DNA from: a virus
DNA length: 12,661 bases
Direction: 5' to 3' (one strand)
Virus record (IMG/VR): IMGVR_UViG_3300035698_001938
Location: 1 to 12,661 of that record
Part shown: positions 1-12,661 of the stretch, one piece after another
Layout: every line of letters starts with the position of its first letter
How positions within the stretch are numbered: the first letter of the stretch is position 1
The notes under the pieces: model-generated
Told to the model about the DNA's origin: nothing
The model's database searches: none
What the model saw: the letters and a program-made list of their open reading frames with translations, nothing else
Made by a program: the position numbers and the translations under genes

Positions 1-101
1 AACCCCACCAACACACCCCACACCCTTCGGACCCCCCGCCACCCCACCCCACTATGATATGTATTAACGAATCTTGATTGGATTGATGTGTGTGTGTGTG
101 T
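1..101. repeat. Terminal direct repeat, copy 1. It is identical to 12561..12661, indicating a circular or terminally redundant genome with a unique length of 12,560 bp.
   Basis: Base-by-base comparison of 1..101 with 12561..12661 gives 101/101 identity. The repeat starts at the window edge and ends at the last base of the window. Confidence 0.97.
87..101. repeat. (TG)7T dinucleotide microsatellite (second copy at 12647..12661)
   Basis: tgtgtgtgtgtgtgt was read directly. It forms the 3' edge of the terminal repeat and is followed by AGGCCTCCA. Confidence 0.95.
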
Positions 102-132
102 AGGCCTCCATAAATTTATCTCACAAAATAAC

Positions 133-151
133 AAATTATATAATTTATAAT
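133..151 (+). promoter_or_regulatory. Perfect 14-bp AT palindrome AAATTATATAATTT plus two TATAAT hexamers (139..144, 146..151). This is a candidate late promoter (-10 or TATA element) or protein-binding site upstream of terL.
   Basis: The palindrome was read directly. TTATCT lies 17 nt upstream of the first TATAAT and is a weak -35. No transcript data are available. Confidence 0.3.
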
Positions 152-167
152 TTCGCCTGATGGCGAA
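152..167 (+). other. Hairpin TTCGCC-TGAT-GGCGAA (6-bp stem, 4-nt loop) just downstream of the TATAAT boxes
   Basis: The arms are perfectly complementary. Function is unknown; it could be a 5' leader structure or a binding site. Confidence 0.5.
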
Positions 168-269
168 CCTCGTGAAGTAATATAAAATATAAGGAGTGGG
201 CGATTAGACCCTATTATCAAATGAATGAAGCAGACCTATACTATTGGCTATCTTGCAGCATGAGCGACT

Positions 270-1535
270 ATGTTTAAGTGGGACAAATGGCAGAAGGAAG
301 TACTAGAAACAAAGGGAAACGTCACCCTACGGAGTGGCCGCCAAGTAGGAAAGAGCGAAGTGATATCTGCAAAAGCTGCGGCCTTTGCCCAGGAAAATCC
401 TGGGACGACAACCCTAATCATTGCAGCATCGCAACGTCAATCCTCACTACTTTTCGAAAAGGTGAGAGGGAACTTAGACCTAATAAACGAAAAAGAAAAG
501 ATATATGCAGAACCCCCAACCCTGACCAGGATAAGATTAAAGAACAAATCCCAAATATACGCATTACCCGCAGGAAGGACAGGCTATTTTATCAGAGGTT
601 TCACAATAGATATGCTTATAGCTGATGAAGCAGCATATATCAGCGAAAATGTTTGGCTGGCCTGTACGCCGATGATTGCTGTCTCGAGAAAACTCAGAGG
701 GATGGGATATATAATTCTCCTATCCACGCCATTCGGAAAAGGTGGCTATTTCTTCAACTCATTTACAGATGATGATTTCCGCAGCTTTCATGTGAGCAGC
801 GAAGATTGCCCCAGGATTCCTAAAGATTTCCTAAGAAAAGAAAAGCTAAGAATGACTAAAGCGCAGTACCGCCAGGAGTACTTAGGGGAATTTTGCGACG
901 AATGGAACCAATTCTTTCCTACAAATTTGATTAAGAAGTGTATGAATTTTATTGAGTGGAATAAAGCAGCGGATTACAAACCACAATACCGCTACTACTT
1001 AGGAGTGGACATAGCACGTTATGGAGGTGACGAAAATGCTTTTGTCGTATGCGAATTACATAAAGATAGTCTCAGAATTGTCAGATGTTTTACAACGGAC
1101 AGAGTGTCTACAACTGACACTATTGGAAGAATCGAAGCTATCGATAGGGAATTCAAGTTTAACAAAATATTTATTGATGATGGGGGAGTCGGTGGAGCAG
1201 TTACGGACATACTTCTTGATAGATTGGGAAGAAAGGTTGTGGGTCTTAATAACGCCAGCAAGAGACTACAAATCCAGGGCGAAGAAAAAAAACGCGGCAT
1301 TTTGAAGGAAGATTTATATAGCAATTCCTTAATGTTAATGGAAACGGGCAAGCTGGAACTTATATCTAACTTAATGTTGCTCCGCTCCCTCAAGAGCATA
1401 ACGTTTGAATATGGAGAGAAGGATAAGGCCAACCGCAACGTGAAGATTTACGGAGATTACGCACATTTAGCCGAGGCTATGGTAAGGGCCTGCTGGTGTA
1501 CGAAGGAAAGGGGCTTAGATATTTATGTATATTGA
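270..1535 (+). CDS. terL: Terminase large subunit (packaging ATPase plus nuclease)
   Basis: 421 aa. Walker A-like RSGRQVGKSE (aa 21-30) and Walker B-like DMLIADEAAY are present. The C-terminal half carries RNaseH-like nuclease signatures GVDIARYGGDENAF and IFIDDGGVGG. The start is the first ATG after an in-frame TGA at 261. Confidence 0.9.
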   Translation: MFKWDKWQKEVLETKGNVTLRSGRQVGKSEVISAKAAAFAQENPGTTTLIIAASQRQSSLLFEKVRGNLDLINEKEKIYAEPPTLTRIRLKNKSQIYALPAGRTGYFIRGFTIDMLIADEAAYISENVWLACTPMIAVSRKLRGMGYIILLSTPFGKGGYFFNSFTDDDFRSFHVSSEDCPRIPKDFLRKEKLRMTKAQYRQEYLGEFCDEWNQFFPTNLIKKCMNFIEWNKAADYKPQYRYYLGVDIARYGGDENAFVVCELHKDSLRIVRCFTTDRVSTTDTIGRIEAIDREFKFNKIFIDDGGVGGAVTDILLDRLGRKVVGLNNASKRLQIQGEEKKRGILKEDLYSNSLMLMETGKLELISNLMLLRSLKSITFEYGEKDKANRNVKIYGDYAHLAEAMVRACWCTKERGLDIYVY

Positions 1536-1724: not shown

Positions 1725-2107
1725 TGGCTTTCACAGGAATATACGTCCCAACAATCGCCGAATTTGAATATAAGTGTGGTGCTGGTGTTTCTTCAACATC
1801 TATAACCGAGGCTTTTGCCAATTCATATATAGGACAGGCCGAAGCCCTAATTAATAATCTCTGTAGGAAAGTGTTTGCGATAGATACTGCTGCGTTTACT
1901 GCTCTCCCAGCAAAAACAAGAGGAACACTCACCGAAGTCGCGAGCAACTTAGCCGCGATTTATGCCATTCAATACGATATGAGCGGCTTCTCCTCAAGAA
2001 TAGAAGCCGAGGACATGATTAATATTTTAAGAGATTCGGCACTAAGAGGTATGAGTTTGTTAAAAGATAAGAAATGGACTGACTTTTTATCCAAAGGCAC
2101 AATATAA
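1724..2107 (+). CDS. Hypothetical 127-aa protein, possibly a head-tail adaptor/connector
   Basis: A strong GAGGAGG lies upstream. The gene is coupled to both neighbours by TAATG. Its size, helical character and position in the morphogenesis block resemble gp6/gp15-type adaptors. No diagnostic motif was seen. Confidence 0.35.
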   Translation: MAFTGIYVPTIAEFEYKCGAGVSSTSITEAFANSYIGQAEALINNLCRKVFAIDTAAFTALPAKTRGTLTEVASNLAAIYAIQYDMSGFSSRIEAEDMINILRDSALRGMSLLKDKKWTDFLSKGTI

Positions 2108-2562
2108 TGTTATTCGACCATGACTATAAGAATTACCCCGAACTCACAAATACTCAGATTAATGAATTCGGCCTATCATCACCACATCAGCAAATAACCG
2201 AAGATTTTTACGCCACAGTCACCAAAGTACACGACGGCGACACCATCACATTAAAAACGGGCTTTAGGGATTTTGAATTTCCCCTAAGATTCCTTAATAT
2301 TGATTCTAAGGAACTCAATGAAGGAGGAGAAGCGGCCCGAGAGTTTGTCAAAGGTAGGATAGAAGGGAAGGAAGTTCAAATAAAGATTGACCCCAACCAA
2401 AGAGTAGGCAAATACGGCCGACTATTAGGTAATGTATTTTTTGGCGGGATGGATGTCGGTGAAGAAGAATTAAGAATAGGTCTCGCCCAACCCTTCGAGA
2501 AAAGAAGCGAGGGCAAACTCCCCAATTTAGATAAAGAATTATCGATAAAAAAATGGCTGTAG
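2107..2562 (+). CDS. Staphylococcal (micrococcal) nuclease-like thermonuclease, SNase fold
   Basis: 151 aa. It aligns by eye with S. aureus nuclease at VHDGDT, LRFLNIDSKE (equivalent to RLLLVDTPE, with the Arg, Asp and Glu catalytic positions kept), GGEAAREF, DKYGR-like GKYGRLLG and GLA. Confidence 0.85.
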   Translation: MLFDHDYKNYPELTNTQINEFGLSSPHQQITEDFYATVTKVHDGDTITLKTGFRDFEFPLRFLNIDSKELNEGGEAAREFVKGRIEGKEVQIKIDPNQRVGKYGRLLGNVFFGGMDVGEEELRIGLAQPFEKRSEGKLPNLDKELSIKKWL

Positions 2563-3386
2563 ATGTAGCAGGAGGAATCCTCAAGCAATCAGACGTAAGA
2601 GAAACAATTACCAATACAGAGGAAACTAACGTGAACTGGGAATTAGACTATGCCAGATTTGAGCAGCTAATAGATACTGGCTTCGCAATAGAAGGGATAT
2701 TTGTAAGCCCCGACGGATTACACGCTTATATCACATACGACACGGGCGGCGCTTCTACAATAGGGGAATATGTTTTTGGTACTAGGTGGGACATCTCCAC
2801 AATAACAGTAGTCAGAACCTTAGACGTAGACGCAAGAGACACCGCTATAAGAGGAATATTCTTTAAGGCAGATGGGACAAAAATGTATTTCTCAGGAAAT
2901 GCAAACGTAAGCGTTTACGAGTACGATTTAGCTACACCCTGGGATATTTCAACAGAGACCTACGTCCGCACTTATGCCGCGGGCGCTGGGGAAGTACCTT
3001 GTATATTTTTTAGAGATGATGGGAAAGAGATGTTTCTTGCTCGTCCTACTTCCAATTCAATAAAAACATTTAGATTGTCTACTGCATGGGATATTTCAAC
3101 AGGCACTTTAGTAGAAGATACTGGCGTCGCCCATCCTGTAGAAGCTTTCTTTTTTAGCAAAAACGGCCTTAAATTATATGTAGCATACGAAAGCGCAATT
3201 ATCAGCGAGTATGTATTGACTAAGCCTTTTGTAGTATCATCTAAGGGCGCAGAGAGCCTATTCACAATAACCCCCGACGGCAATGTCGCGGGACTATATT
3301 TTAAACCCAATGGGTCTAAGATGTATGTAGCAACATTCGACACTCACGACATTCAGGAATATTCAATAAAACGAGGGTGGAGATAA
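2553..3386 (+). CDS. Repeat protein, probably beta-propeller-like, with about five ~50-aa units; likely a virion or tail-associated protein
   Basis: 277 aa. The unit [IL]FF..DG.K[ML][YF]...(I/V).E[YF].L.T.WDIST recurs, with WDIST at aa 79, 130 and 179 and degenerate units before and after. The gene overlaps the nuclease gene by 10 nt. Confidence 0.6.
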   Translation: MAVDVAGGILKQSDVRETITNTEETNVNWELDYARFEQLIDTGFAIEGIFVSPDGLHAYITYDTGGASTIGEYVFGTRWDISTITVVRTLDVDARDTAIRGIFFKADGTKMYFSGNANVSVYEYDLATPWDISTETYVRTYAAGAGEVPCIFFRDDGKEMFLARPTSNSIKTFRLSTAWDISTGTLVEDTGVAHPVEAFFFSKNGLKLYVAYESAIISEYVLTKPFVVSSKGAESLFTITPDGNVAGLYFKPNGSKMYVATFDTHDIQEYSIKRGWR

Positions 3387-10730: not shown

Positions 10731-10874
10731 CTATTACTCTACCTACAACCCCCTACACCACTCTATGCCTTCTCTTATAATAAATTAAAGGGAAAGAAAT
10801 AGCAAGTTGTCTACTTAAATGGATTTCTAGCGCCGCTAATATATAAATCTTTCTATTATACAGATATATTAGCA

Positions 10875-10884
10875 TATGATAGTA
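10875..10884 (+). repeat. TATGATAGTA motif copy (other exact copies at 10926..10935 and 4658..4667; 9/10 match at 12335..12344)
   Basis: Exact 10-mers were found by reading the sequence. The two intergenic copies are 51 bp apart. Confidence 0.8.
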
Positions 10885-10925
10885 CCTATATTCTATACAA
10901 CATATAACTATATAAATAAGTACTC

Positions 10926-10935
10926 TATGATAGTA
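10926..10935 (+). repeat. TATGATAGTA motif copy
   Basis: Exact 10-mer. It also shares an 11th base (T) with the copy at 4658. Confidence 0.8.
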
Positions 10936-10967
10936 TATATTTTTCCCCAAAAAACAAGAAACATAAA

Positions 10968-10993
10968 CTAGGCTGGTCTGCAAATCAGCCTAG
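10968..10993. promoter_or_regulatory. Inverted repeat CTAGGCTG-N10-CAGCCTAG, operator-like or a hairpin
   Basis: The 8-bp arms are perfect. The repeat ends 3 nt before TATAAT (10997..11002) and about 15 nt before the first early gene. Confidence 0.5.
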
Positions 10994-11008
10994 CTTTATA
11001 ATCAAAAG

Positions 11009-11302
11009 GTGATAAAAATAGCAAGCAAACAAGAACTAAAAGGGAGTGAGGCAAGAATTATAGTATATCTGGAAAATAGCGATAAGCCGATACATTATGT
11101 CAGAAAGATTGCAAGTAAGTTAGACATGGACTATGGATATTGCATTAAAATATTAATTGCTATGTTAGAAAAGGGATGGCTGAGTACTGAAAAGACATTT
11201 GCCAATCCTTCAAGAACCTATTATCACTTAACTCAAGAAGGTAAGTGGAAAATAGCTGTAGCAAACAACATAGCTTCAAAAAATATCGAGGTGATAGCAT
11301 GA
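11009..11302 (+). CDS. Winged-helix (MarR/ArsR/TrmB-like) DNA-binding protein; start codon uncertain
   Basis: 97 aa from the GTG at 11009. The pattern ARIIVYLENSDKPIHYVRKIASKLDMDYGYCIKILIAMLEKGWLS...YYHLTQEG is typical of a wHTH. No ATG lies near the 5' end. The GGTGAT at 11008..11013 would instead suggest initiation at the in-frame ATA at 11018. Confidence 0.65.
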   Translation: MIKIASKQELKGSEARIIVYLENSDKPIHYVRKIASKLDMDYGYCIKILIAMLEKGWLSTEKTFANPSRTYYHLTQEGKWKIAVANNIASKNIEVIA

Positions 11303-11631
11303 ACAGAGAAATACAAAAACAAATGACTATAGAAGATGGTAAGCATATAGGTGTAGTAATAGCAATCGAAGAAAGGACAAAGCCATATAAATATTTAGAC
11401 GTGGTGATAGAATTTGAAGAAGGAAAGAAAATTAAAGCTGGATATCCTGACTTCCTTAGTAGTGAATCTAAGCTGGGACAGTTACTCGCTAGATTTAAAG
11501 CCGACGTATCTACTCCTGGAAGCATCGTAGACCCTGAGAAGGTATTGATAGGCAAGAAGTGTCAGTTTATGACATTGAAGGAAGGAAAGTATAGCAATGT
11601 CATACCCGAGAGTGTTAAGCTAGTGGAATAA
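11299..11631 (+). CDS. 110-aa beta-rich protein, possibly an OB-fold/DUF669-like ssDNA-binding protein
   Basis: The ATG at 11299 has a GGTGAT-N3 RBS and an ATGA overlap with the upstream stop, so I prefer it to the track's 11245 start. The pattern DGKHIGVVIAIEER..YKYLDVVIEFEEGKKIKAGYP...LGQLL...DPEKVLIGKKCQF resembles DUF669 from recall, unverified. Confidence 0.6.
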   Translation: MNREIQKQMTIEDGKHIGVVIAIEERTKPYKYLDVVIEFEEGKKIKAGYPDFLSSESKLGQLLARFKADVSTPGSIVDPEKVLIGKKCQFMTLKEGKYSNVIPESVKLVE

Positions 11632-11633
11632 AA

Positions 11634-11843
11634 TTGACAACAGGACTAAATAAATGCTTCTTAAGAAGGCTAACATTCCACAGAGCAAACGAAAATAGCA
11701 CAAGAAGGAATATATATAAACTATTAAGGATATTTAGGTACCCATCATATCAGGCACGTATAATGAGGGACTGGAAACCTAATTACATATATCGTTTCCT
11801 AGAAGCAAGAGGCCAGGCTTATGTCACAGATAGACTTGATTGA
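11634..11843 (+). CDS. Doubtful 69-aa basic ORF with a TTG start
   Basis: There is no ATG near the 5' end and no RBS. It is R/K/Y-rich and fills an otherwise empty gap. It overlaps the next ORF by 23 nt. Confidence 0.25.
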   Translation: MTTGLNKCFLRRLTFHRANENSTRRNIYKLLRIFRYPSYQARIMRDWKPNYIYRFLEARGQAYVTDRLD

Positions 11844-11997
11844 AAGAAAGAAAGAATGTCCTTACTATGATGGTGAACTCTGCTACTTCCATAAGAAGAA
11901 TGAAGACCCAAATAGTAAATACCCCAAACAAGCACGCTTATTCAAATGTCCTGAGAAGAATAGATATGCTAGGTCTAAGTGTAGATTAAAAGAATAA
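11821..11997 (+). CDS. 58-aa Cys4 mini-protein, possibly zinc-binding (MSQIDLIERKKECPYYDGELCYFHKKNEDPNSKYPKQARLFKCPEKNRYARSKCRLKE)
   Basis: Hand-translated and absent from the track. It has four Cys in two pairs and is basic. Mini-proteins of this kind are common in early viral regions. Confidence 0.45.
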   Translation: MSQIDLIERKKECPYYDGELCYFHKKNEDPNSKYPKQARLFKCPEKNRYARSKCRLKE

Positions 11998-12074
11998 AAG
12001 GCCCTTGCAAGCAACGGCCTCCCACTTAGCCACCCCACCATTTAAACACCGAAAGAATGAACATCATAATGCAC
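11990..12074 (-). ncRNA. Candidate ~80-nt antisense sRNA
   Basis: On the minus strand, TTGACA (12108..12103), a 16-nt spacer and TATTGT (12086..12081) lie upstream, and the terminator above lies downstream. The body contains GGUGGGGUGGC. This is inferred from signals only. Confidence 0.3.
11999..12020 (-). terminator. Intrinsic-terminator-like hairpin oriented for minus-strand transcription
   Basis: The minus-strand RNA reads AGGCC-G-UUG-CUUG-CAA-G-GGCCU (5 bp, a G.G mismatch, 3 bp, CUUG loop) followed by UUUUAUUCUUUU. In the + orientation the stem is followed by CCCACUUAGCC with no U tract. Confidence 0.45.
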
Positions 12075-12101
12075 AACAAAACAATAAAATAGGTCATTGC
12101 A

Positions 12102-12326
12102 ATGTCAATAGAGAAACTAGAGCGTGTCATGTGGAGATTAAGAAAGAGAAACCCCAATAATGATAGGCCAACATGGGCAGAGCTAAGAAGGGCTATAATG
12201 TATGAATGTGGCACAGACATATCAACATTCTATAAGAATAAACAAGCTCTTGTCACTTTAGGATGGATTAAGACACGAAACGGCTTAAGGCTATCAATCA
12301 CTAATAAAGATATAACGGGAGAATGA
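12102..12326 (+). CDS. 74-aa winged-helix-like DNA-binding protein (regulator, or possibly a small-terminase-like pac-binding protein)
   Basis: The pattern PTWAELRRAIMYECGTDISTFYKNKQALVTLGWIKTRNG looks like an HTH plus wing. It is the last gene before the non-coding island and terL. Confidence 0.5.
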   Translation: MSIEKLERVMWRLRKRNPNNDRPTWAELRRAIMYECGTDISTFYKNKQALVTLGWIKTRNGLRLSITNKDITGE

Positions 12327-12340
12327 GGATAATGTATGAT

Positions 12341-12420
12341 AGTCCAAGCCTCGCTACGGCTATAGAACCTGTCTGCCTTCGGCACTCGACAGAACCTTAC
12401 GCCTTCGCTACGTTTGGACT
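12341..12420 (+). other. Nested stem structure with embedded direct repeats (candidate structured RNA or protein-binding array)
   Basis: The outer stem pairs 12341..12349 with 12412..12420 (9 bp including one G.U). The inner hairpin is 12369..12392 (CTGTC/GACAG plus TGCC/GGCA around a TTC(G) loop, with a 3-nt bulge). Direct repeats are TCGCTACG (12351..12358 and 12405..12412) and AGAACCT (12364..12370 and 12391..12397). Confidence 0.45.
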
Positions 12421-12536
12421 ACAGTCGCTCAGTCGTTACACTCCAGATGCTCAACGCCTAGTTCCCTCACCGTCTGATGGTCACTATGGCTCAGGCGCCA
12501 AAAGACAACCTCACGCAGTTCGGCATTTATATCTAT

Positions 12537-12553
12537 GCGGCCAATCAGGCCGC
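12537..12553 (+). other. GC hairpin GCGGCC-AATCA-GGCCGC
   Basis: The 6-bp stem is perfect and all G/C. The loop plus closing bases CCAATCA are complementary to TGATTGG at 12635..12641. Confidence 0.6.
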
Positions 12554-12612
12554 CAACCCCAACCCCACCAACACACCCCACACCCTTCGGACCCCCCGCC
12601 ACCCCACCCCAC
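12551..12612 (+). repeat. C-rich, G-poor tract with ACCCC-type repeats; the minus strand carries multiple GGGG runs
   Basis: A hand count of 12551..12610 gives 40 C, 14 A, 4 G and 2 T. It reads ...CAACCCCAACCCCACCAACACACCCCACACCCTTCGGACCCCCCGCCACCCCACCCC. The complement has at least 6 runs of G3 or longer. Confidence 0.9.
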
Positions 12613-12661
12613 TATGATATGTATTAACGAATCTTGATTGGATTGATGTGTGTGTGTGTGT
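12561..12661. repeat. Terminal direct repeat, copy 2 (identical to 1..101)
   Basis: See copy 1. It contains the distal part of the C-rich tract, a TATGATA motif, GATTG GATTG and (TG)7. Confidence 0.97.

Follow-up and report, generated by a model that had tools for sequence, protein, structure and literature searches.

What might a virus of 12.6 kb keep in a gene-free stretch of about 500 nt? The question is raised by IMGVR_UViG_3300035698_001938, an IMG/VR virus record of 12,661 nucleotides (hereafter the window, meaning that whole stretch of DNA), in which a G+C-rich non-coding segment separates a short block of early genes (11009-12326, placed after the late genes) from the large terminase gene terL. 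No polymerase, primase, helicase, Rep, integrase or small terminase (TerS) was recognised in the window with Pfam, PHROGs and NCBIfam. A first, sequence-only reading of this DNA had proposed that the segment could be a pac/cos packaging site, a host-dependent origin, a structured RNA similar to phi29 pRNA or HK022 put, or the 3' untranslated region (UTR) or terminator of the early operon. Our comparison with relatives shows that its G+C-rich part, the island (12327..12627; 301 nt from the stop codon of the upstream gene to a conserved box, C-skewed and hairpin-rich), belongs to a family-wide structured element found at the same place in about 45 loci, and that the window carries a degenerate, weakly structured member of it. 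Based on its sequence anatomy, its linkage to early genes and the published properties of DNA mini-hairpins with GNA loops, we rank first, although tentatively, a function as a host-dependent origin of replication or single-strand-initiation (ssi) region.

An island of variable sequence and constant architecture

Bases 1-101 of the window are an exact copy of 12561-12661. The contig is therefore a closed circular unit of 12,560 bp, and the non-coding stretch runs over 12327..12560 plus 1..269 (equivalently 12327..12661 plus 102..269), 503 nt altogether. Three independent assemblies, from ENA, Logan and JGI (L070, L071, L072; the genome is held in ERZ27315763, SRR7528379 and 3300023257 of these sources), are identical in this region apart from two differences, a substitution in 102-269 and a repeat-number variant in the C-tract of L072, and both L070 and L071 are continuous across the 12661->102 junction, from the upstream gene via the island to terL. 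The earlier hand count of 157 G+C in the 270 nt of 12341..12610 proved exact (58.1%; A61, C109, G48, T52), and the segment is indeed compositionally foreign, being the G+C maximum among all 270-nt windows of the genome (mean 40.5%, sd 4.4; +4.0 sd; next 52.2%); its flanks, estimated at about 30-40% G+C, measure 36.7% and 35-40%. The segment is also the GC-skew minimum of the genome (-0.40), which we discarded as an origin marker because all genes of the window are on the + strand, making skew uninformative. The description of genes that overlap or lie 1-40 nt apart, with this stretch as non-coding DNA, holds for the 503 nt but overlooks that 10731-11008 is also non-coding; most of 11998-12101 is not covered by any open reading frame (ORF) either.

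The island does contain an ORF of 104 codons (12323..12637), called by the gene caller in L070. However, its product would be a low-complexity, proline/histidine-rich protein without family match, no relative shows any similarity to it, the closest relatives differ in it by indels of 1, 4, 6 and 15 nt, and long ORFs are expected by chance in G+C-rich DNA. Judging from these sequence features it is not a gene, the chance that it encodes a 104-aa protein being negligible, and the non-coding status given to the region stands.

Relatives were collected via TerL and via the 74-aa winged-helix protein (p74) whose gene lies immediately upstream of the island (12102..12326, + strand) and is the syntenic anchor in all of them. 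Matches to p74 were found by tblastn in 25+ loci, in each case with an island after the gene, and 37 homologues were recovered. Islands are mutually unalignable save for a few close pairs, and BLASTN of the 503-nt region against the loci then fetched detected similarity only in 12617-12661 and 102-141. Because so few pairs could be aligned, whole-island alignment failed and we analysed motifs and sub-clades, with no covariance model. Island length, from p74 stop to box, is 258-404 nt in 18 measured relatives, mostly 270-320 nt. Island G+C content (0.42-0.70) reaches at least 0.50 in 24 of 31 loci and exceeds that of the locus (0.36-0.55) in every one of them, with more C than G on the + strand in 27. 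Runs of five T (T5) are missing from the 18 measured islands, and T4 runs are almost absent. Minimum free energies of folding correspond to mean z-scores of -3.9 on the + strand and -4.2 on the minus strand (23 loci), against -0.41 +/- 0.9 for 280-nt controls from terL, so that the hairpin richness noticed in the window holds family-wide. In L057, L027, L026, L029, L064, L019 and L079 the island is bordered on both sides by perfect long-range inverted repeats of 12-24 bp, with a sequence peculiar to each genome (the window has only an A+T-rich 8/9 version). Lineage-specific, iteron-like short tandem repeats, whose copy number varies between near-identical strains, reach significance in 21 of 34 loci, within the 130 nt that precede the box.

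The same hairpin types recur from island to island: a type keeps its loop while its stem sequences are unrelated, and the types follow one another toward the box in a constant order. The commonest unit contains the main motif TCGCTNCGCTC (TCGCT-N-CGCTC), with GGC-TCGCTTCGCTC-GCC as consensus hairpin. It has 35 matches (N = 1-3 nt), 35 on the + strand and none on the minus strand; the copies positioned relative to the box are all upstream of it, and none was seen in the coding parts of the loci. In 18 loci the motif has complementary flanks of at least 3 bp. Taking all 26 exact copies, unselected, flanks pair in 64.7% of cells versus 42.7 +/- 3.1% when shuffled (0/500), and the flank covariation score is 0.536 versus 0.169 (0/500), with slid controls at 0.09-0.20; between L019 and L027 alone there are seven compensatory pairs. 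Other recurrent elements are a CCGTC loop on perfect 6-7 bp stems of unrelated sequence, found on the + strand only and in the island only (L002, L019, L027, L029, L064), GCC-TATMT-GG(T)C hairpins (L001, L075 with 2 copies, L076), an AATCA loop on different stems 49-122 nt before the box (L001, L042, L064, L073), and C-run/G-run hairpins. Conservation and covariation, whose absence from relatives would have spoken against a functional element here, are thus present in architecture, loops and stems, although not in sequence.

All the small features named in the sequence-only reading (hairpins, direct repeats, C-tract, TG run, AT palindrome and second hairpin) could be located in the window. The island opens with a 5' border motif, TATGATAGT (12335..12343, + strand), pairing 8/9 with ACTATGATA at 12611-12619; it also occurs at 10875 and 10926 in the AT-rich early region, and the idea of a family-wide operator was dropped because the motif is not general. 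Domain 1, a long irregular hairpin (12340..12421, + strand) closed by TAGTCCAA/TTGGACTA, has the apex TGCC-TTC-GGCA (12374-12384, + strand) within CTGTC..GACAG (12369-12392), with flanking GAACC repeats, and contains the half-motif TCGCTACG, a degenerate form of the main motif, as a direct repeat at 12351 and 12405 (+ strand). This domain is common only to the nearest relatives, L075 and L076, where CTGTC/GACAG is replaced by CTGCC/GGCAG, a compensatory change, and the window hairpin had no match in an exact-pattern scan of IMG/VR. Further along the + strand are a CCGTC-loop hairpin, CCCTCA-CCGTC-TGATGG (12464..12480), with 5/6 pairs; a weak TATAT-loop hairpin, GCAT-TTATATCT-ATGC (12523..12538), positional counterpart of the GCC-TATMT-GG(T)C hairpins of L001, L075 and L076; an AATCA-loop hairpin, GCGGCC-AATCA-GGCCGC (12537..12553), whose loop recurs in relatives; and a C-tract (12553..12612; 40 C and 3 G of 60) of CCCCAC-type repeats with a second CCTTCGG, the minus strand of which is prone to form G-quadruplexes. 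The + strand folds with z -2.06 (12335-12556) and -2.07 (12327-12661), the minus strand with z -0.57.

Even between otherwise identical strains, islands show micro-heterogeneity, as in the C-tract of L072 (compared with 12553-12612) and in L079 versus L081, which differ by a hairpin of about 24 nt inserted between copies of the 9-nt direct repeat CAGAACCTG. One might see in the island a cluster of selfish or neutral G+C-rich palindromes, akin to repetitive extragenic palindromes and bacterial interspersed mosaic elements (REP/BIME) or to miniature inverted-repeat transposable elements, housed in the one spacer that tolerates them and acting at most as an insulator between early and late genes. 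The repeat-flanked L079/L081 indel, a cassette-like mid-island replacement in L042 versus L064 and the fact that the region is a hot spot of assembly breaks all suit this explanation. It is also favoured by a 17-nt core, GGCTCGCTNCGCTCGCC. An exact scan of IMG/VR retrieved this core from at least 120 contigs, where it often lies between genes, in several copies and as inverted pairs with a spacing of 60-370 nt. Like REP/BIME arrays and mitochondrial G+C clusters, the islands are clustered, hypervariable G+C-rich palindromes in an A+T-richer genome with a core motif shared by unrelated genomes. They differ from them in their fixed order, orientation and length and in being present as one cluster per family genome; length, hairpin order and strand (35 to 0) are kept while TerL identity across the family is only 50-77%. 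In addition, stems differ while loops are kept, so that the hairpins are not copies of one element, and no transposase or RAYT gene was found. We thus consider a selfish or neutral origin of the island unlikely.

Loop types and the question of RNA or DNA

Several features of the hairpins point to DNA, and to its minus strand, rather than to a classical structured RNA. The reverse complement of TCGCTNCGCTC is GA-GCGNAGC-GA: its invariant bases coincide exactly with those of the GCGNAGC DNA mini-hairpin, and its free base is the N of that mini-hairpin. The GCGNAGC mini-hairpin forms only with GNA loops, has a melting temperature of 70-76 C, resists nucleases and is poorly bound by single-strand binding protein (SSB), and GCGNAGC/GNA mini-hairpins are found at the primase sites of phages G4, St-1 and alpha3, in RSF1010 ssiA (as CCGAAGG) and in the hairpin promoters of phage N4 (PMC13037366, a 2026 review by the discoverers of these structures). 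Read base by base, TCGCTNCGCTC has tandem G.A pairs next to its core on the minus strand versus pyrimidine mismatches on the + strand. Around 40% of island loops are of 3 nt, and in a manual tally TTC (9), TCC (4), TGC (3) and TAC (1) account for 17 of about 33 + strand triloops; all 17 are GNA on the minus strand, 14 of them have the favourable C-G closing pair, and no GNA triloop was counted on the + strand. Stems are almost purely Watson-Crick, G.T pairs not being in excess over A.C (a wobble-pair test with small numbers), and fold z-scores are equal on both strands across the family. In the window, the domain-1 apex reads CCGAAGG on the minus strand (12376-12382), and a second CCGAAGG lies on the same strand of the C-tract (12584-12590). 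The hairpins described earlier as having UUCG-like loops are present, but TNC triloops, equivalent to GNA DNA mini-hairpins of the opposite strand, are a better description of their loops.

Transcription of the + strand is nevertheless very likely, there being no T-run between p74 and the island. This leaves room for another explanation, in which the p74/early transcript would end in the island as an untranslated 3' tail that protects it from 3' exonucleases or controls read-through into the late operon, or its timing, in a put-like or attenuator-like manner. In its favour, the island has the orientation of all genes, there is no T5 and almost no T4 between p74 and island, the first T5 being that of the conserved box at +47, which could be an archaeal-type terminator, and a kept length and hairpin order, with kept loops on covarying stems, is typical of an RNA family; in the window, the + strand also folds slightly better than the minus strand (z -2.07 vs -0.57). 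By contrast, the C-TNC-G triloops that recur on the + strand have no special stability in RNA and are GNA DNA mini-hairpins when read on the opposite strand, the + strand of the main motif would contain pyrimidine mismatches in tandem, G.U pairs are not enriched, z is equal on both strands across the family, and unpaired segments have much C and little G, an unusual composition for a structured RNA. Known RNA families are not recognisable either, as had been judged by eye: a permissive search of Rfam, where phi29 pRNA and known phage cis-regulatory RNAs are represented, gave no match at E<=1 in the window, the five weak matches in 17 relatives (two of them in or near an island) were all far under the gathering score, and a tRNA/tmRNA scan of the window found none. 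Taken together, these data make an RNA function rather unlikely in our opinion. As to the early-operon 3' UTR or terminator proposed at first, the UTR stays a live rival, since the upstream gene is not followed by a T-run terminator ahead of the island, but a scan of 12327-12661 for intrinsic terminators (G+C-rich hairpin plus T-run) found none. C/D-box, K-turn, CArG-box and Chi-like readings of short motifs, made by eye, were dropped as over-interpretation.

The two phage RNAs invoked for comparison, phi29 pRNA and HK022 put, are like the island non-coding structured elements of small phages, and differ from it in context, in the absence of any model match and in the DNA loop types of the island. 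HK022 put consists of two stem-loops just downstream of the early promoter that act in cis on the polymerase; the island is located at the 3' end of the early genes, not just after a promoter, and this analogy finds no support. A packaging RNA of the phi29 type could be envisaged for a non-coding, hairpin-rich region of divergent sequence and kept architecture that adjoins a packaging gene. However, the packaging ATPase of phi29, gp16, is not a classical terminase, and the phi29 genome is protein-primed, whereas the 421-aa TerL of the window matches Pfam Terminase_6N and the large-terminase profile phrog_2, the latter over residues 2-409, and no protein-primed polymerase was found. Together with the DNA-type loop signature and the lack of Rfam matches (window at E<=1; 17 relatives at the gathering score), this makes a pRNA-like element highly improbable.

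Linkage to the early module and the conserved box

Two relatives are particularly informative about the genetic unit to which the island belongs. Between L019 and L023, identity is 99.3% over the stretch that starts 27 nt ahead of the box and includes terL, while their islands are unrelated and their p74 genes only 70% identical. Because they share the late module but not the islands, the island travels with the early genes and not with terL, and the late-module proteins cannot be reading its sequence.

This contrast bears directly on the possibility that the region serves DNA packaging, as a pac/cos site or terminal-repeat boundary where repeats would bind the terminase and cleavage would occur near the conserved box. 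The region is immediately upstream of terL, short tandem repeats adjoin the box CGAATCTTGA, which is as conserved as TerL itself, and the ends of the window contig fall within the C-tract. Moreover, 14 of 21 incomplete contigs of at least 4 kb begin within the 700 nt that precede terL (binomial p 8e-10). These starts share no single position, being spread over -190 to +40 relative to the box, and the breaks are probably due to island heterogeneity and C/G runs. Four family contigs are circular, with overlaps of 113-127 nt at arbitrary coding positions. Known cos/pac regions (lambda cosQ-cosN-cosB, lactococcal cos) do resemble ours as relatively G+C-rich non-coding DNA of a few hundred nt before terL, with direct and inverted repeats. 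The island differs from them in segregating with the early module, in having no fixed contig end and in its covarying stems, unexpected in a double-stranded recognition site; in addition, no TerS was recognised, p74 being a plain winged helix. We therefore hold a packaging function of the island to be quite unlikely. The L019/L023 argument, which weakens the pac/cos proposal for the island, leaves the box untouched, and the box itself could be a pac site.

The box (12628..12637, also 68-77, + strand), found in more than 30 loci, is the first element of a late control block that aligns without gaps in 36 sequences, with rigid spacing: CGAATCTTGA, a GT-rich spacer of about 25 nt with little or no C, which all aligned relatives have, a CCAGGC/CCACCCC/TAGGCC box and GAAAGATTTTTAT. 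In the window the spacer is C-free and G/T-rich (12638..12661, also 78-101, + strand) and includes (TG)7.5 at 12647-12661, and a promoter-like block with TAGGCCTCC and then ATAAATTTAT (101..119, + strand) stands at fixed spacing from the CGAATCTTGA box. Some 60 nt around the box are nearly devoid of C on the + strand. Relatives have a T-run at +47/48 from the box, and in several of them (seven checked) the first late ATG lies 25-32 nt past the start of this run with a GGAGG between, so that leaderless and Shine-Dalgarno-led readings both fit. Beyond the block, 102-269 has only 35% G+C and forms an easily melted segment adjoining the island, with an AT-rich palindrome (126-153) followed by the hairpin TTCGCC-TGAT-GGCGAA (152-167). 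Most relatives encode an ORF of 46-84 aa between promoter-like block and terL (compared at L001 2874-3051 and L002 9775-9999), where the window has only an 18-codon ORF (221-277) overlapping the terL start. Upstream of p74, at 12028-12050, CCACCCCACC and then ATTTAAAC resemble the CCACCCC plus TATA-like late block of relatives, a likeness suggesting that the 74-aa gene and the island may form their own transcription unit. We rejected a pseudoknot between loop and box: the CCAATCA loop of the window is complementary to TGATTGG of its box, but by eye no matching TGATT occurs near the box in L042, L064 and L073. These observations also bear on a hallmark of phi29-type pRNA, two loops that are complementary between molecules and permit rings to form.

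The early block that accompanies the island encodes small putative nucleic acid-binding proteins. AlphaFold predicts p74 with a pLDDT of 90, its nearest folds being the IclR N-terminal domain, SSV1 F-93, MarR and the MCM8 winged helix. A second early gene encodes a 97-aa PadR-like winged-helix protein, and a third (11299..11628, + strand) an OB-fold protein (pLDDT 92) for which the top PDB folds are PrgE, the ssDNA-binding protein of pCF10, Teb1, SsbB and RPA; given this predicted fold, it is a candidate for binding the island in single-stranded form. The repeats bound by Teb1 are TTGGGG, and GGGGTTGGGGTTGG is read on the minus strand of the C-tract, a likeness that is probably coincidental. 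The family possesses two interchangeable early modules: that of the window (11009-11631), with the 97-aa winged helix and the OB-fold protein, and another with a single protein of about 270 aa having an N-terminal winged helix and conserved WNFHN and EHKTK motifs (L002, L073, L077, L079, L082). The idea of a Rep hidden in the latter was dropped, as it had no Pfam, NCBIfam or PDB-sequence match.

On the late side, terL (270..1535, + strand; Pfam Terminase_6N, PHROG 2 with E 5e-42) is the first gene of the late block and the right boundary of the region. The window further encodes portal, major capsid, lectin-fold, staphylococcal-type nuclease and beta-propeller proteins and several unknowns; the nuclease-like and WD40/PD40-like beta-propeller genes (2107-3386) lie between terL and the portal gene, which is unusual for so small a structural module. 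Near-complete family contigs measure about 11.3-12.3 kb. An attP site or host fragment was rejected as explanation of the island, there being no integrase in the window and complete relatives being of the same size and collinear. BLASTN against GenBank phages gave no match, and we found no paper describing this virus family. The metagenome-assembled genomes that include relatives carry mixed labels (Pacearchaeota, 'uncultured archaeon', Bacteroidota), while the small winged-helix proteins and the TATA-like box make us lean toward an archaeal host.

A tentative origin or priming region

We propose that the family has a conserved cis-acting control region, part of the early (replication/regulation) module, with the island as its variable half: ordered strand-specific hairpins and lineage-specific tandem repeats would be followed by the GT-rich segment, the box and the AT-rich stretch. 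The island would act as DNA and not as a classical structured RNA. Upon duplex opening, the minus strand may fold in vivo into GNA-type mini-hairpins (GCGNAGC and C-GNA-G cores on variable stems) that would stay free of SSB and mark the start for the host priming or replication machinery. The winged-helix proteins (p74 and the 97-aa PadR-like protein) and the OB-fold protein might bind there as helpers. In favour of a host-dependent origin or ssi region are the family-wide occurrence, hairpin enrichment and covariation of the element, the GNA/GCGNAGC motifs on the minus strand, the iteron-like tandem repeats, the linkage to an early module with winged-helix and OB-fold proteins, the adjoining AT-rich palindrome and the absence of a recognisable replicase. 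Among the functions listed in the sequence-only reading, the host-dependent origin is accordingly the best-fitting candidate with respect to hairpin anatomy and early-module linkage, even if no virus-encoded initiator was found.

The closest counterparts are ssi signals and other complementary-strand origins (oric of G4, St-1 and alpha3, ssiA and ssiB of RSF1010, ssoA of rolling-circle plasmids), which are likewise non-coding and made of strand-specific hairpins with conserved loops or cores on variable stems. They have GNA/GNNA mini-hairpin cores, as do the family islands, the window contributing only two CCGAAGG and degenerate copies; RSF1010 ssiA carries the very heptamer CCGAAGG present on the minus strand of the window. 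Nonetheless, ssi/sso systems belong to genomes that demonstrably pass through a single-stranded stage and possess a dedicated primase or Rep, whereas here the virus is a double-stranded tailed one and no such gene was found; the family array, with about 300 nt and at least five hairpin types, is also much longer than ssi elements, and its function is putative. IncQ oriV regions, with iterons, G+C-rich and A+T-rich segments and ssi hairpins, are comparable in layout to the proposed region. Iteron origins, like the islands, adjoin genes of small DNA-binding proteins and are co-inherited with them, and their A+T-rich unwinding element has its counterpart in 102-269, with its low G+C content and AT palindrome. 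They contain at least three copies of about 20 bp, in contrast with the family repeats, mostly two copies of 8-18 nt and not significant in the window. IncQ plasmids furthermore encode RepC, RepA and RepB, to which no protein here is similar, and the island turns over beside an identical winged-helix gene.

Several observations weigh against this proposal. The most important is the second non-coding region, 10731-11008, which precedes the early genes, has 28-30% G+C and holds TATGATAGT twice plus a hairpin (10968-10993); its equivalent in relatives is bracketed by inverted (TAC)3-4/(GTA)3-4 runs. It looks more like a conventional origin than the island does, and is a candidate either for that function or for an early promoter/operator. 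Searches of the window with Pfam, PHROGs and NCBIfam recovered neither an initiator nor a primase nor a HUH nickase encoded by the virus, which leaves the rolling-circle or ssi analogy without its enzyme. L042 and L064, which have identical p74 3' ends and 98% identical flanks, differ by the replacement of about 180 nt in mid-island and also in repeat copy number; such turnover at constant p74 does not sit easily with an initiator that recognises a specific sequence. Template switching can, in the absence of selection, generate perfect stems and compensatory changes in DNA quasi-palindromes; and since the + strand is almost certainly transcribed, an RNA role is possible. Finally, the window itself is a poor representative: taken by itself, its island is weakly structured (z -0.2 over the 280 nt that precede the box) and its direct repeats lack significance (p=0.13), and it has only degenerate copies of the main motif, with no exact TCGCTNCGCTC 11-mer.

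Among the GGCTCGCTNCGCTCGCC matches listed, 50 contigs have a G+C content below 0.45, where the estimated chance expectation is less than one, and only nine are family members; the N position is T, G, A or C among these listed matches. In unrelated A+T-rich contigs, some from giant-virus bins, the core is intergenic, often multi-copy and in inverted pairs at the spacing given above (L088, L118, L167, L113, L152, L177), and it is embedded in longer genome-specific repeats (L084-L203), being followed by GGGCC-GAA-GGCCC in L113 and by ...GGGGGTATGGGGG in L088 and L167. Its occurrence in unrelated viruses without fixed orientation to genes, one copy standing beside a same-strand GAA hairpin, is a further point against an origin function. 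No paper was found that contains the 15-nt core GCTCGCTTCGCTCGC or its complement. Alternatively, although more speculative and in our view doubtful, the island may be the type example of an unrecognised class of viral origins in which an ordered minus-strand array of GCGNAGC / C-GNA-G mini-hairpins, and not a conserved sequence, would recruit host priming, so that a tailed virus of 12.6 kb could dispense with every replication enzyme; GGCTCGCTNCGCTCGCC would then be a widespread structural DNA signal in many unrelated A+T-rich environmental viruses, contigs from giant-virus bins among them.

The family contigs, of about 11.5-12.5 kb, are among the smallest tailed-virus genomes and lack recognisable replication, integration and small-terminase genes, which implies that their cis-acting DNA must do unusually much. 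The conserved box adjoining TCGCTNCGCTC hairpins provides a marker for finding such regions. If the island is indeed a replication or priming signal, it illustrates how a minimal tailed virus could borrow the whole host replisome via DNA shape and not via sequence. For GNA mini-hairpins, hitherto described at only a few coliphage and plasmid sites, this would mean a broad natural role.

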